Source: Acidobacteriota bacterium
GTDB lineage: Bacteria > Acidobacteriota > Thermoanaerobaculia > Multivoradales > UBA5704
Assembly (NCBI GenBank): GCA_040005235.1
Contig: JBDTZG010000019.1
Coordinates: 32,144-96,143 of the forward strand
Direction: 5' to 3'
DNA length: 64,000 bases
Part shown: positions 20,772-50,538 of the stretch, piece after piece
How the letters are laid out: every line of letters begins with the position of its first letter
How positions within the stretch are numbered: the stretch's first letter is position 1
Program-made: the position numbers and the translations under genes
Notes under the pieces: generated by a model
Databases searched by the model: none
What the model was told of the DNA's origin: nothing
What the model saw: only the letters and a program-made list of their open reading frames with translations

Positions 20772-21919
20772 CCCTGACCTTTGAGCACGCCGCGGGCGAT
20801 CACCAGCCGCTGGATCTCACTGGTCCCCTCGCCGATGGTGCAGATCTTCGCGTCGCGGTAGTACTTCTCGGCCCGGTAATCCTTGATGAAGCCGTAGCCG
20901 CCATGAATCTGCACGCCGCGCTCGGAGCAGAACACGGCGGCCTCTCCGGCGTAGAGCTTCGCTTCCGAGGCGAGCTGCGAAAACTTCTGCCCGCGGTCGT
21001 TCGCCTCGGCCGCGGCGAAGGTGAGGATCTCGGCCGCGGCGATCTTGGTCGCCATCTCGGCCAGATGGAACTGCACCGCCTGAAACGACGAGATCGGCTT
21101 GCCGAACTGCTCGCGCTCTTTGGAGTACTTCAAGGCCGTCTCATAGGCGCCGATCGCGGTGCCGAGCCCCAAGGCCGCGATCGAGATCCGGCCGCCGTCC
21201 AAAATCGCCAGCGCCTGCTTGAACCCCTCGCCGGGTGAGCCGAGCAGGTTTTCGTCCGGCACGAAGCAGTCTTCCAGGATCACCTCCGTCGTGTCCGAGG
21301 CGCGGATACCGAGCTTGTTCTCCTTCTTCCCCGGCCGGAATCCGGCCATCCCCTTCTCGACCACGAAGGCCGACATGTGGCTGCCGCGCTTCGCCTCAGG
21401 GTGGGTGACCGCCATGATCACGAAGGTATCGCCCACCGAGCCGTGGGTGCAGAACGCCTTCGACCCGTTGAGGACCCAGCCGCCGTCCACTTTCTTACCG
21501 TTCGTCCGCGCGGCGGCCGCATCCGACCCGGAGCCCGCCTCGGTCAACCCCCAGGCGGCAATCTTCTCGCCGCTCGCGAGCGGGGTGACCCAGCGCTTCC
21601 GCTGCTCTTCGTTGCCGAACTTGTAGATGTGGTTCGTCCCCAGCGAGTTGTGGGCGGCGATCGAGATGCCGACCGAAGGATCGACCTTCGACAGCTCGGT
21701 GATCACCAGCACGTATTCGAGATAGCCGAGCCCCGCGCCGCCGTACTCCTCCGGGAAGATGACCCCCAGAAAACCGAGCTCGCCGGCCTTCCGGATCACC
21801 TCGCGCGGGAACTTCTGCTGCTCGTCGATCTCATCGACGATCGGGTCGATCTCGCGCAGCGCAAACTCGCGCGCGGTGTCCCGAATCTGAACCTGCTCGG
21901 CCGAAAGGGCGAAATCCAA
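20768..21919 (-). CDS. Acyl-CoA dehydrogenase
   Basis: PEEYGGAG, GLTEAGSGSD, LNGSK, KLGIRAS, LDGGRI, REQFGKPI, GEGTSEIQR; TTG start with AGGAGA RBS. Confidence 0.92.
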   Translation of the reverse strand: MDFALSAEQVQIRDTAREFALREIDPIVDEIDEQQKFPREVIRKAGELGFLGVIFPEEYGGAGLGYLEYVLVITELSKVDPSVGISIAAHNSLGTNHIYKFGNEEQRKRWVTPLASGEKIAAWGLTEAGSGSDAAAARTNGKKVDGGWVLNGSKAFCTHGSVGDTFVIMAVTHPEAKRGSHMSAFVVEKGMAGFRPGKKENKLGIRASDTTEVILEDCFVPDENLLGSPGEGFKQALAILDGGRISIAALGLGTAIGAYETALKYSKEREQFGKPISSFQAVQFHLAEMATKIAAAEILTFAAAEANDRGQKFSQLASEAKLYAGEAAVFCSERGVQIHGGYGFIKDYRAEKYYRDAKICTIGEGTSEIQRLVIARGVLKGQG

Positions 21920-22152
21920 GGTCTTCTCCTGATCTCCCGGCCAGCGGGCGGAAGCTGAGACTCGGGCGGTGGAGCCCGTCCCGCGATAGAGCGGAGATGC
22001 TATCGCGCGGCCAACGACAGCGCCAACCCCAGCGAAACCCGGACTCCGCCGAGACGATGACCCGAAATTCGCGCCGTTTGCCGCAACGCCGCGGGAACGC
22101 CTGCGCCGGCCTCTCCCGAGCGGCAATCACGGCAGAATAGCCACACTCGCAG

Positions 22153-22158
22153 TAAAAT
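22153..22158 (+). promoter_or_regulatory. Candidate -10 box immediately upstream of the 20-bp array
   Basis: TAAAAT in a GC-rich context; no convincing -35. Confidence 0.35.
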
Positions 22159-22160
22159 AT

Positions 22161-22340
22161 GCCGTCCCTGCGGCGGGGAACGCTTCCCTGGTCCAGAGAT
22201 CTGTTCTCCAGACCAGAGAATCATTCTCTGCCGCAGAGAATCTTTCCCTGCATCGAAGAAACATTCTCTAGAGTAGAGATAGAATCTTTGTACCAGAGAG
22301 TCATTCCCTGAGCCAGAGAACCGTTCCCCGCGCCAGGGAG
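22161..22340. repeat. Array of nine 20-bp palindromic units (consensus NNN-TTCYCTG-NNN-CAGRGAA)
   Basis: Exact 20-nt register, e.g. tcaTTCTCTGccgCAGAGAA, tcaTTCCCTGagcCAGAGAA, acaTTCTCTAgagTAGAGAT. Confidence 0.9.
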
Positions 22341-22383
22341 CGCTAATATCCACGCCATCGCCCCTATCGGGAGGAGAGCGCCG

Positions 22384-22749
22384 ATGTCCCACGGAACGTA
22401 CGCTGAACAGCTCGAAAGTTGGCGAATTCTGGTCAACAACCTCGAATCGAAGATCGATAACGTCCCCCAAGCCGCAGCCGATCGTGCCGAGCTCCGAAAG
22501 CTGACCGACGAGGTGCAAAGGCTCTCCGCAGAAATCGAGGTCGCCAGCGGCCAGCTCCGAATCCTCACCGACCGCCGCCGCAAAGCAGCCCATGCTGCCC
22601 GCCAGAAACGCCTCCTGATAGCAGCCCACCTCCAGGGCCACTTCGGATTCGACCACCCCGGCCTCCTCTCCTTCGGCATCGAACCCCGAGCCCGGAAGAG
22701 GCGGGCCAAGAAGGCGAAGCCGAGTGGGGAAGGGACTCCAGCCGGATAG
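22384..22749 (+). CDS. Hypothetical 121-aa helical/coiled-coil protein with basic C-terminal tail
   Basis: GGAGGAGAG RBS; heptad-like helices; GHFGFDHPGLLSFGIEPRARKRRAKKAK. Confidence 0.8.
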   Translation: MSHGTYAEQLESWRILVNNLESKIDNVPQAAADRAELRKLTDEVQRLSAEIEVASGQLRILTDRRRKAAHAARQKRLLIAAHLQGHFGFDHPGLLSFGIEPRARKRRAKKAKPSGEGTPAG

Positions 22750-22856
22750 CGCCCCGCCTCAGGTGTGCTCCTCCTGGGACCGGGCATGTGAAGCCGAGAG
22801 GGGAAGGGACTCCAGTCGGCTAGCTCGCCGCCTCAGGCGTGCTCCTCCTGGGACCG
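22716..22856 (+). repeat. ~67-bp direct repeat (period 74) duplicating the 3' end of the 121-aa gene
   Basis: GAAGCCGAG.GGGGAAGGGACTCCAG..GG.TAGC...CGCCTCAGG.GTGCTCCTCCTGGGACCG at 22716 and 22790. Confidence 0.8.
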
Positions 22857-22918
22857 CCGGCGTCTCGCCGGCGCAACGCCTCAACGGCGACAGGCGCCGA
22901 ACGCGGCCAGAAGCGGCG

Positions 22919-23143
22919 CTAAAAGCCTCGGCGTAGCCGGATACCTTCCGGTTGCGCAGCGTAAGCCAGCGCGGCAAGCATTTCGTCGCGGGTCAGGTCG
23001 TATTCCTTGGCCACCTCTTCGAAGGCCATACCGCCGCCAAGCTTGCCGATTACCAGATCCACTGGAACTCGAGTTCCCTGGATCACCGGCCGCCCGAAGC
23101 GGACGCTTTCATCGACGCTGATGCGGGGGGCGATCTGGATCAT
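22919..23143 (-). CDS. DUF433-family antitoxin
   Basis: RISVDESVRFGRPVIQGTRVPVDLVI...EEVAKEYDLTRDEMLAALAYAA. Confidence 0.85.
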   Translation of the reverse strand: MIQIAPRISVDESVRFGRPVIQGTRVPVDLVIGKLGGGMAFEEVAKEYDLTRDEMLAALAYAAQPEGIRLRRGF

Positions 23144-23354
23144 GGGGAGAAGAATAGCTTGCCCGCGGGAAGGCTGTTCCTGGGACCGCCGAGCACCAGC
23201 TCGGCATCGAAGCGGCGAAAGCGCCCAAAGCAGGTGAGCGGGTGCTCGGCTGGTCTATCTGGTCTCAACCCTCGATCCGCCAGAGGCCAAGAGGCCGGCT
23301 TCCACCTTCGAGTAGCAGGTTCGTCGCCTCCAACAGCACGACGCGCGGACTGCA

Positions 23355-23471
23355 TTACCTCGTGGTGAGAACGTCCATCTGCTCTGCGAATCGATTTGGA
23401 CGGGCGGTCGAGTAGTCGAACCGGTACTCGGCGCGCAGCTCGTCGTCGGTGTCAGCAGCTACCTTCTTCAT
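23355..23471 (-). pseudogene. Truncated antitoxin-like ORF (38 aa)
   Basis: Manual translation MKKVAADTDDELRAEYRFDYSTARPNRFAEQMDVLTTR; resembles the N-terminal half of BrnA-like antitoxins but lacks the C-terminal DNA-binding half. Confidence 0.5.
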
Positions 23472-23479
23472 AGCGCTGC

Positions 23480-23764
23480 TCACCAGGTCACGCCCTTCTT
23501 CTCTACCGGAAACAGCTTCCGTTCCGAGAGCCGGTCTTCATCCAAAACTCGAATCAGGTATTCGCCGGTCTCCTTCTGCTCTTCTGCATCCCCGTGGTTG
23601 ATCCACGAGTCGAACAATGCCGAGAGCGCAGCGGCTCGGTTCTCTACCGGTATTTGGCTCTCGAGGAGGGTTAGTGTGTACTGCTCAACCGGCAGGCCTT
23701 GGTCGGCGGCGAGTTCGGTCAGGCGTCGCTCCAGACTAGGAGTCAACTCAAGAGTAAGGGTCAC
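23480..23764 (-). CDS. Putative antitoxin (RHH-like N-terminus)
   Basis: MTLTLELTPSLERRLTELAADQGLPVEQY...EEQKETGEYLIRVLDEDRLSERKLFP; GGAGGT RBS with GTG start. Confidence 0.65.
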   Translation of the reverse strand: MTLTLELTPSLERRLTELAADQGLPVEQYTLTLLESQIPVENRAAALSALFDSWINHGDAEEQKETGEYLIRVLDEDRLSERKLFPVEKKGVTW

Positions 23765-24277
23765 AGGACACCTCCGAAGGGCGGATCCCAATAGCCCGGT
23801 CGATTCTAGACCAGCGCGCCGCCCCCTGCCTCAAGATGCTGCGATTTTAACAGGCATTGGCGGAGGCTAGGTCCCATCGTCGCGGCTTTCCCCGGGACCG
23901 CCGAGCACCAGCTCGGCCCGGTCGTCGAGCGGCCTCCTGTGCCGAACCGTAGGCCTACCATTTCGCTTCCATATCGCCAGCCCTGGGACCGCCAGCTTCC
24001 TCGCTGGCGCTTCGCCCCGCTCGATTCTAGCAGTCCTTGCCGGAAGCCTGGGCGGTTGCTGCTTTCTCCCGAGGCCGCAACCGCTCGGCACCTGGCAGCG
24101 CCCCCATCCTGGCCTTCCCCCGGCTCCAACCGGCCCCCTCCCCGGGGGAAGGGACGCTACGTTCGGCGGCGGTGGCCGATGAGGCGAAAAGCAGCCGAGC
24201 TGGTGCTCGGCGCGCCCGGGGAGAAGCTCCCTTCGGCGAAAGACTTCGGCTCTGCGGGTCGTTGGTGCGCCCTCGCC

Positions 24278-50344: not shown

Positions 50345-50497
50345 CGATATCTTTTGTTATCACTTCTTTCGCACCATGAACACTGTAAACAAATTCGGCC
50401 TCAGGTTTGCGATACCTTTTGTTGTCACATTTCCCGCGCCCTCCATGAACACTGTAAACAAACCCGACTTCAGGCTTGCGATACCTTTTGTTGTCAC
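50345..50497. repeat. AT-rich tandem repeat, period 65-69 bp, about 2.3 copies
   Basis: CGATAYCTTTTGTTRTCAC at 50345, 50410, 50479; CCATGAACACTGTAAACAAA at 50374, 50443. Confidence 0.85.
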
Positions 50498-50538
50498 ACT
50501 TTTATTTGGCCATTTGTCTATCTTTGTTGGATTGGACG

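Follow-up and report, generated by a model that had tools for sequence, protein, structure and literature searches.

Introduction

Among described systems, omega of pSM19035 and ParR offer the closest parallels to the locus reported here, an array of nine 20-bp palindromic units that stands directly in front of the gene of a 121-amino-acid (aa) basic helical protein in a 64,000-nucleotide stretch of DNA (the window) from an Acidobacteriota bacterium (GenBank assembly GCA_040005235.1, contig JBDTZG010000019.1). Omega is associated with 7-10 heptad iterons that overlap promoters and ParR with the parC tandem repeats upstream of its own operon; the sites are taken in direct or inverted orientation, binding is cooperative over the whole array and specificity differs between related systems (PMC5016525). 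The window locus resembles these systems in that a small protein gene adjoins about ten short sites at its own promoter region: the nine units end 43 bp before the ATG, and 15 of 27 paralogs in the same genome have the same layout. The differences are considerable. Their fold is ribbon-helix-helix, whereas the present protein is modelled as all-helical and Pfam recognises no ribbon-helix-helix family in it; they have a partition NTPase partner (ParM or ParA type) on plasmids, whereas no such neighbour is present here; and in place of their 7-11-bp iterons the genome holds a 20-21-bp dyad unit, 27 chromosomal paralogs and about 100 arrays. Of the systems compared, the locus would work most like the small autoregulators and centromere-binding proteins that act on iterated sites, minus their defining fold and NTPase. 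The reading preferred here, to which about an even chance is given, is that the protein binds DNA as a dimer, covers the phased sites in front of its own gene and regulates its own expression.

Repetitive extragenic palindromes (REPs) are hairpins of 20-40 bp that occur in small clusters, and in Proteobacteria each REP family has a RAYT (Y1 transposase) gene beside its own repeat. The arrays described below share with REPs and bacterial interspersed mosaic elements (BIMEs) the dispersed intergenic palindromes of alternating orientation, the several families per genome and the cognate gene for each. They differ in their strictly phased 20-21-bp tandem units, which form runs of 5-20, and in their partner, a non-enzymatic helical protein of 120 aa with the array on its 5' side only. 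Genome-wide dispersal is a property of the class (108 arrays) and not of the window unit, which occupies one locus of the genome. A Y1 gene flanked by the repeats was not found, the 11 matches to the Y1 family PF01797 in the genome being absent from the window's contig and not recurrent at arrays.

In type III toxin-antitoxin systems the antitoxin acts as RNA and is made of tandem direct repeats, nearly identical and about 34-45 nt long, and a terminator lies between the repeats and the toxin gene. The succession of promoter region, short tandem repeat and small protein gene at the window locus is like that of ToxIN, CptIN and TenpIN, and a first-pass annotation of the window, made from the letters alone, had offered a multi-hairpin leader RNA echoing such loci as one of two mechanisms, the other being a phased DNA array on which a protein polymerises. 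The locus departs from type III systems in lacking a ToxN/AbiQ-type endoribonuclease, the model of its protein being a helical hairpin, and in having 20-nt palindromic, degenerate units with no RNA signal. Type III membership failed on every feature tested (endoribonuclease, RNA-type repeats and terminator). Iterons served by a Rep initiator were likewise rejected, as Pfam and NCBIfam give no Rep family and the context consists of chromosomal housekeeping genes.

Results

A phased palindromic array and the gene behind it

Position numbers refer to the window, which is C11:32144-96143 of a genome of 6.22 Mb in 140 contigs with 66% G+C (designated G000); the coordinates of the features are collected in Table 1. 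Sequence reading shows that each unit of the array is composed of a 3-nt linker, a 7-nt half-site, another 3-nt linker and the inverted half-site. The half-site orientation flips every 10 bp, and the linkers carry no information. The nine-unit array in exact register that the first-pass annotation described was borne out by this reading, by repeat finders and by shuffles. Tandem Repeats Finder reports a period of 20 at 22214-22320 and 22293-22336, and a separate repeat search gave 7 copies at a spacing of 20 bp or 40 bp. The pattern TTCYCTG-N3-CAGRGAA, allowing up to 2 mismatches, has 7 matches in the window, every one within the array, against a shuffle mean of 0.54; none of 100 shuffles reached 7. 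A pattern search of the genome confined the window-type unit to this one locus. The period of 20 rules out a coding repeat, and only 5 of the 117 genome arrays considered below lie within coding-looking frames. Clustered regularly interspaced short palindromic repeats (CRISPR) are ruled out for the window array by its contiguous units, which have 3-nt linkers and no spacers; the genome does have true CRISPR arrays, and their period is 65-67 bp. Both exclusions had been made at first pass and are upheld.

Two hexamers resembling a -10 element border the array. The TAAAAT box noticed at first pass does abut the 5' side; no acceptable -35 hexamer was found for it, and its position is not retained in the orthologous loci of two genomes of the same genus (G003 and G001). 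By eye, the TAATAT hexamer on the 3' side opens a block, TAATATCC.CGCC.TCGCC, that is common to the G003 ortholog and not conserved in G001. A scan of 21900-23200 with a strict sigma-70 consensus gave no promoter, and TAATAT was likewise missed. The sole terminator-like site in the same region is on the minus strand (22182-22163), and none was found on the gene strand between array and gene.

The 121-aa open reading frame (ORF) is a real gene of an unannotated family, and its strong ribosome-binding site (RBS) and basic C-terminal tail are present as first described. The ratio of nonsynonymous to synonymous substitution (dN/dS) among three orthologs is 0.22-0.38, with dS between genomes of 0.44-1.08; the same-genus orthologs of G003 and G001 are 75% and 66% identical to it, respectively. 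The calculated isoelectric point (pI) is 10.4, compared with a median of 10.1 across the 27 copies of the genome, and residues 60-121 contain 15 Lys and Arg versus 4 Asp and Glu. The protein had been expected to be helical, and the AlphaFold2 model is so throughout: helices span residues 6-26, 28-87 (a 60-residue helix) and 92-97, followed by a disordered basic tail, with no strand and a mean predicted local distance difference test (pLDDT) score of 85.5. The homodimer prediction passed its controls, with a score of 0.73 where the best of 3 controls scored 0.00. The 0.73 mark was reached by 20 of 30 proteins solved as pairs of the same chain versus 1 of 23 solved as single chains, counts that apply only roughly here because the prediction used a custom alignment. 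The dimer runs agree in at least 100% of contacts, with a partner pLDDT of at least 84, and the long helices of the predicted dimer pack antiparallel, residue 40 for example lying with 72 and residue 47 with 65.

Searches of Pfam, NCBIfam, PHROGs and PADLOC gave no family above cut-off or with a meaningful score for the protein; the absence of any ToxN, CptN or TenpN match from Pfam and PADLOC agrees with the first impression that it does not resemble these toxins. Foldseek found no match in the PDB at E <= 0.001. VIA-align over 48,161 chains returned generic helical hairpins throughout (best Z 6.8), the best hit of a PDB sequence profile search was a designed protein (E 0.0014), and the ESM Atlas search returned unnamed acidobacterial clusters only.

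Arrays lie upstream of genes of an undescribed protein family

The family to which the protein belongs is undescribed, large and narrow in range. Tblastn located 17 further family loci in the window's genome, and a profile built from 21 sequences found 27 family genes there. Applied to other genomes of the taxonomic family, this profile had matches in 17 of 18 (4-46 per genome); it had none in 12 genomes from other families of the order and, at E <= 1e-5, none in 200 additional genomes of the phylum. Of the 1.84 billion representatives of a protein library, 1162, each standing for a cluster at 50% identity, match at E <= 0.001, and 430 match at E <= 1e-10. A literature search, supplementary files not included, found no description of the arrays or of the protein family. 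The family genes are monocistronic, and a terminator-like hairpin can be recognised by eye downstream of most of them. One member is over-long and opens with a 7-residue repeat, the translation of a 21-bp array.

Arrays near these genes were recognised by lag-20-to-22 autocorrelation, with the 99th percentile of 4000 random 700-bp segments as the threshold. A periodic array lies within 700 bp upstream of 15 of the 27 copies in the window's genome, where 0.27 would be expected, and within 700 bp downstream of none (0/27). By a similar criterion, 14 of 26 loci of other genomes with enough upstream sequence have an upstream array. The first-pass annotation had proposed to look for further periodic palindromes upstream of homologs, and they are indeed found there, in front of paralogs and in other genomes alike. 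Its proposal that array and gene form a two-part module is supported by this polarity and by the recurrence elsewhere; it does not extend to most arrays of the genome, which have no family gene. The unit sequence differs from locus to locus, as judged by reading the 450-560 nt upstream of each copy. A cassette with arrays on both sides of the gene is ruled out by the downstream count. A strict sigma-70 consensus promoter was recognised in 6 modules; in 4 of them (C82:105751, L026, L031 and L044) it follows the array and precedes the gene, which places the array outside that transcript.

The array is probably read as double-stranded DNA

The array of the window was compared with its orthologs in G003 and G001, which have the same synteny; the three contain 9, 10 and 11 units, respectively, or 60 half-sites. 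At position 2 of the half-site, 59 of the 60 have T, and at position 3 as many have C. The information content is 0.96-1.31 bits at positions 4-7 and 0.08-0.34 bits at position 1 and at each of the six linker positions.

Covariation analysis, one of the checks suggested at first pass, revealed no base-pair covariation either in these three orthologous arrays or in 40 arrays of the window's genome. In the orthologous arrays, pairing between true partners (Watson-Crick and G-U) occurs in 162 of 210 cells on the plus strand versus 162.5 in shuffles, and in 164 versus 165.0 on the minus strand; pairing of the arms in the other register had the same outcome. In the 40 arrays (386 units), 530 changes are one-sided, and the double changes comprise 32 that keep the pair versus 30 that do not. 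The paired cells number 1872 versus a shuffle mean of 1862 (standard deviation 8), and 61 of 500 shuffles reach the observed value. Thus, the unit TCTCTA/TAGAGA that the first-pass annotation had called compensatory is literally present, as are the G-U pairs, but neither has statistical weight. No consistent strand preference emerges from the folding energies of 10 arrays (sense minus antisense, -0.6 kcal/mol on average), and the window array folds better as antisense (-103.1 kcal/mol) than as sense (-87.0 kcal/mol). Rfam, searched to an E value of 1, returned three microRNA-family matches only, at 22-29 bits versus gathering scores of 91-117.

The conservation of the half-sites, the absence of covariation and the absence of strand bias favour a reading of the array as double-stranded DNA in helical phase. 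Of the two mechanisms originally offered, the phased DNA array is favoured by these results together with the 20-21-bp period and the location of some arrays upstream of consensus promoters or in convergent gaps. The leader RNA with its toxin-antitoxin echo is not borne out, there being no ToxN-like match, no Rfam family and no gene-strand terminator.

The array class across the genome

Tandem Repeats Finder identified 133 arrays of at least 100 bp in the window's genome, and the period of 117 of them is a multiple of roughly 21. The smallest period among the 117 is 21 in 69 arrays, 20 in 24, 22 in 1 and 41-42 in 14, giving 108 arrays with a median length of 198 bp and a total of 23.6 kb, or about 17 per Mb. 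Periods of 20-21 correspond to two turns of B-DNA. The genes flanking the arrays are in tandem at 51 sites, convergent at 27 and divergent at 15, the remainder being at contig ends; because gaps of all three kinds are occupied, the arrays are not simply promoter elements. Occurrence across the genome regardless of the neighbouring gene, which the first-pass annotation had named as evidence against its proposal, is thus what is seen for the class, and is not seen for the unit type of the window.

Shared 9-mers divide the arrays into about 14 multi-member types and singletons, with clusters of 16 and 19 arrays. In several types, one array precedes a family gene and others are gene-less. Arrays of the same type have the palindrome in common and not the flanks, the palindromic core being near-invariant and the linkers variable. 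The only sizeable recurrent family among the proteins that flank the arrays is that of the 121-aa protein.

Co-occurrence of arrays and genes among genomes

The search for the window type covered 11 genomes and used a two-unit pattern that allowed up to 3 mismatches. One locus was found in G000, one in G001, two in G003 and two in G007; none was found in G002, G004, G005, G006, G008 or G013, and the one hit in G011 is no more than its reversed-pattern control gives. Orthologs of the protein (E <= 1e-20) are present in exactly G000, G001, G003 and G007, and each has the window-type array directly upstream. The array type therefore accompanies the ortholog in 4 of 4 genomes and is absent from all 7 that have none. 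The second array of G003, with 9 units, is gene-less and lies between two unrelated minus-strand genes. The second locus of G007 is 88.6% identical to the first and lies at a short contig end; it is thus uninformative and not to be called gene-less.

A second type, CCGAAWTSGAATTCGG, stands upstream of close orthologs (85-95% identity) of the protein encoded on C126 in 3 of 3 genomes (G002, G004 and G001), and has 8 loci in all in G002 and 4 in G004. In G006 the relative of the C126 protein is 69% identical and the array is absent; in G003 it is 66% identical, and two loci have weak arrays.

Array density was counted in samples of 280-400 kb, for arrays of at least 100 bp with a base period of 20-22 or 40-44. 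In 400-kb samples there were 15 arrays in G013 (46 family copies), 7 in G014 (16 copies) and 6 in G009 (7 copies). G016, of the same taxonomic family and with no copies, had at most 1 array in 280 kb, and G025 and G028, also with no copies, had none in 400 kb each. Array density thus follows family presence, a result that is supportive only, the genomes being few and related. G028, which belongs to another taxonomic family, contains in its 400 kb eight arrays of an unrelated G+C-rich palindromic repeat (L151, L156, L160, L161 and L167), most of them with 63-64-nt units.

DCoH-like genes beside family genes

Six DCoH/PCD-like genes are present in the window's genome, and five of the six precede a family gene or its array by 77-760 bp and share its strand (Table 1). 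On C52 the array is situated between the DCoH-like gene and the family gene. Pairing with a DCoH-family gene recurs at six loci of other genomes (L029, L035, L037, L038, L040 and L045). The Pfam match of the DCoH-like genes barely passes (28.4 versus 26 bits), and the NCBIfam equivalogs are far below cut-off. The usual motif of the DCoH dehydratase is a His-His-Pro stretch. By eye this stretch is replaced in most of the five genes, and the encoded proteins may be non-catalytic.

DCoH stabilises the four-helix-bundle dimer of eukaryotic HNF1, which binds a palindrome as a homodimer (PMC12412204). The likeness to this system, as described there, lies in a predicted helical-bundle dimer beside a DCoH-like gene. 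The differences are that the family protein has no sequence relation to HNF1 and that the window locus has no DCoH-like gene.

Other features of the window and genome

The 121-aa gene stands alone, with a divergent minus-strand ORF on one side and a minus-strand DUF433 gene (E 1.5e-18) on the other. The 74-bp tandem duplication at its 3' end repeats the last codons of the ORF, the stop codon and the first bases of the 3' flank, and its second copy is a decayed non-coding relic. Farther downstream, a 103-aa ORF has a weak, sub-threshold ParD/HicB-like match; together with the DUF433 gene it may form a small toxin-antitoxin-like cluster.

A REP-like hairpin element with the core GGGACCGCCGAGCACCAGCTCGGC and its complement occurs twice downstream of the 121-aa gene, and also at L009, downstream of the family gene on C69. 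One of the 11 matches to the Y1 transposase family PF01797 lies about 700 bp past the C69 copy; none is on C11. This element and the Y1 genes look like a conventional REP/RAYT system that is separate from the 21-bp arrays.

On C18, a 341-bp array with periods of 21, 42 and 84 bp is parted from a family gene by a 4.4-kb insertion. The insertion has inverted ends of about 31 bp, a duplicated CACCGGTG and a 319-aa ORF that clusters with two other ORFs of the genome and is transposase-like by eye.

Table 1 Features of the window and of related loci in the same genome. Coordinates without a contig prefix are window positions.
Feature	Position	Strand	Remarks
TAAAAT, -10-like hexamer	22153-22158	+	Abuts the array on its 5' side
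Palindromic array	22161-22340	.	Nine 20-bp units in exact 20-nt register; 18 half-sites nTCYCTG
TAATAT, -10-like hexamer	22344-22349	+	3 bp past the last unit; found by eye; putative promoter role
RBS, GGAGGAG	22370-22376	+	7 nt 5' of the ATG (sequence reading)
Gene of the 121-aa basic helical protein	22384-22749	+	ATG at 22384; from the ORF list; array ends 43 bp before the ATG
74-bp tandem duplication	22703-22850	+	2 copies, 84% alike; Tandem Repeats Finder and second repeat search
REP-like hairpin element	22841-22859, 23173-23250		Core GGGACCGCCGAGCACCAGCTCGGC and its complement
DUF433 gene	22919-23143	-	Just downstream of the 121-aa gene
103-aa ORF	23480-23791	-	ParD/HicB-like, sub-threshold
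69-bp tandem repeat	50345-50498		2.3 copies
DCoH/PCD-like gene near family gene	C10:20617-20946		
DCoH/PCD-like gene near family gene	C123:12249-12545		
DCoH/PCD-like gene near family gene	C52:8228-8503		
DCoH/PCD-like gene near family gene	C59:71238-71522		
DCoH/PCD-like gene near family gene	C69:23488-23808		
341-bp array and 4.4-kb insertion	C18:222073-226978		Insertion between array and family gene
CRISPR array	C68:66895-68055		65-67-bp period; not among the 108 arrays
CRISPR array	C45:5-504		Repeat in common with C68; 65-67-bp period; not among the 108 arrays

Discussion

From these observations we infer DNA binding, cooperative spreading, autoregulation and a role for the gene-less arrays, in the following form. 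The 121-aa protein would be a sequence-specific double-stranded-DNA-binding protein whose recognition element is the hexamer TCYCTG. It would act as a two-fold symmetric, antiparallel coiled-coil dimer that presumably touches DNA with its Arg/Lys-rich C-terminal half and tail. The hexamer would be met in flipped orientation every 10 bp and again every 20 bp, about two helical turns; such a repeat places all dyads on one face of the helix, and the dimers would bind side by side and spread cooperatively along about 180 bp. The last unit is followed after 3 bp by TAATAT and after 43 bp by the start codon, which would put the filament on or just upstream of the protein's own promoter. It would set the level of its own gene, repression being the more likely form of autoregulation. 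Each of the 27 paralogs would have its own palindrome type, and gene-less arrays of a given type would be further platforms for the protein of that type.

Several observations weigh against this scheme. Firstly, 12 of the 27 copies have no detectable lag-20-to-22 array. Among these, two have long-palindrome units of 42-44 bp by eye (C18:24272 and C118), two have irregular GATAGC-type sites (C69 and C99), and two lie directly behind a DCoH-like gene (C10 and C123), the other DCoH-linked copies being among the rest or array-bearing. A further one, C18:226979, is severed from the 341-bp array by the 4.4-kb insertion; in the orthologs L021 and L042 the array directly precedes the gene. Secondly, no family gene lies within 1.2 kb of 97 of the 108 arrays, and most arrays are therefore not promoters of family genes. 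Thirdly, the promoter lies upstream of the array in 2 of the 6 modules with a consensus promoter (L032 and L043), and some arrays may be transcribed. Fourthly, the protein has no recognisable DNA-binding fold, the fold and sequence searches having given generic helical matches only. Fifthly, the palindromic core is 13-17 bp wide depending on type, by eye, which is hard to square with one dimer geometry. The period, not the core width, is invariant across types; such constancy points to a spacing fixed by a protein lattice or by the helical phase and is a difficulty for a rigid dimer. Finally, the joint presence or absence of gene and array is partly plain co-inheritance of neighbours. At the syntenic site of G006 (L182, G006:C19, corresponding to window 21300-23477), a single deletion removed the array together with two thirds of the gene from its 5' end, leaving the last ~98 nt at 91% identity; the joint absence there is one event and hence not independent evidence.

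That the arrays are instead an autonomous class of intergenic minisatellites, REP/BIME-like and structural, selfish or bound by another factor, and that the protein does not read them, appears unlikely. Genes would then sit beside arrays, for example, for promoter activity or as landing or duplication sites. The many arrays without a family gene are in keeping with this explanation, especially as the search within 1 kb of the 97 gene-less arrays gave no convincing relic of a family gene (best E 0.0037, most weak hits being translated array). With no relic beyond that one weak hit, gene-less arrays as dead modules are ruled out. The occupation of every kind of gap, including the 27 convergent ones, and array edges that by eye are more degenerate than the centres, as in arrays shaped by unequal exchange, point the same way. 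The association is nevertheless strictly polar, with 15 of 27 copies having an upstream array versus none with a downstream one, and no other sizeable gene family recurs beside the arrays. The half-site is held constant across species while the linkers drift, which suggests that something reads the sequence. Moreover, the roughly 30-50 types would need as many readers, a number of the order of the family copy number; the array type tracks the ortholog, gene-less loci included; and array density follows family presence in 7 genomes.

It is quite improbable that repeat and gene form a selfish or mobile cassette, in which the protein maintains, spreads or protects arrays of its own type and regulation of its own gene is secondary. 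Such a cassette could explain why one type is found at many loci beside one cognate gene, as in the 8 loci of G002 and the G000 clusters of 16 and 19. It would also suit the patchy distribution of the module, whose ortholog is present in 4 of 8 genomes of the genus, other genes following the shared upstream gene at the syntenic sites of G002 and G004, and the variation of unit number among species (9, 10 and 11). A 121-aa helical protein with no catalytic motif is, however, unlikely to move DNA, and arrays of the same type have neither flanks nor ends in common. In addition, the window type is present at a single locus of its genome, and the Y1 (RAYT-type) family is not recurrent among the proteins at array flanks.

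An RNA-level module, in which transcription of the array yields a multi-hairpin leader, or an RNA of its own, that is bound or processed by the basic protein or controls translation or stability of the mRNA, is very improbable: each unit could form a 7-bp hairpin, the protein is basic, and the promoter precedes the array in the two modules mentioned and, by eye, as TTGACA-N17-TAGTCT at the C111 array, but covariation, a consistent strand bias (the window array folding better as antisense), an Rfam family, a ToxN-, CptN- or TenpN-like match in Pfam or PADLOC and a gene-strand terminator-like site are all missing, the units are degenerate, unlike the near-identical units of type III antitoxins, the promoter follows the array in 4 of 6 modules, and the clustering of periods at 20-21 has no reason in an RNA hairpin.

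As a dimer on its own phased array, the protein would belong to a known kind of system, that of a protein with iterated cognate sites; a sequence-addressed chromatin system instead is conceivable, if doubtful. In that case the family would be lineage-specific and comprise dozens of rod-like dimers that have diversified, each reading a private palindrome set out as helically phased minisatellites at one to many sites, its own promoter always among them. Filaments addressed in this way, approximately 100 per genome, would serve as insulators, roadblocks or nucleoid anchors, some of them with a non-catalytic DCoH-like cofactor. If true, such an address system would give bacteria an equivalent of satellite DNA and its dedicated binding proteins, and it would employ a new DNA-binding fold.

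If the reading as a self-regulating, array-coating dimer holds, the 21-bp palindromic arrays of Acidobacteriota gain a protein partner, and a large unannotated family (1162 clusters at 50% identity) gains what is probably a new way of reading DNA. The dozens of natural orthogonal protein/site pairs would be useful for studies of cooperative filaments and for synthetic regulation. The purpose of bacterial minisatellites would then become directly testable with one 121-aa protein and 180 bp of DNA.

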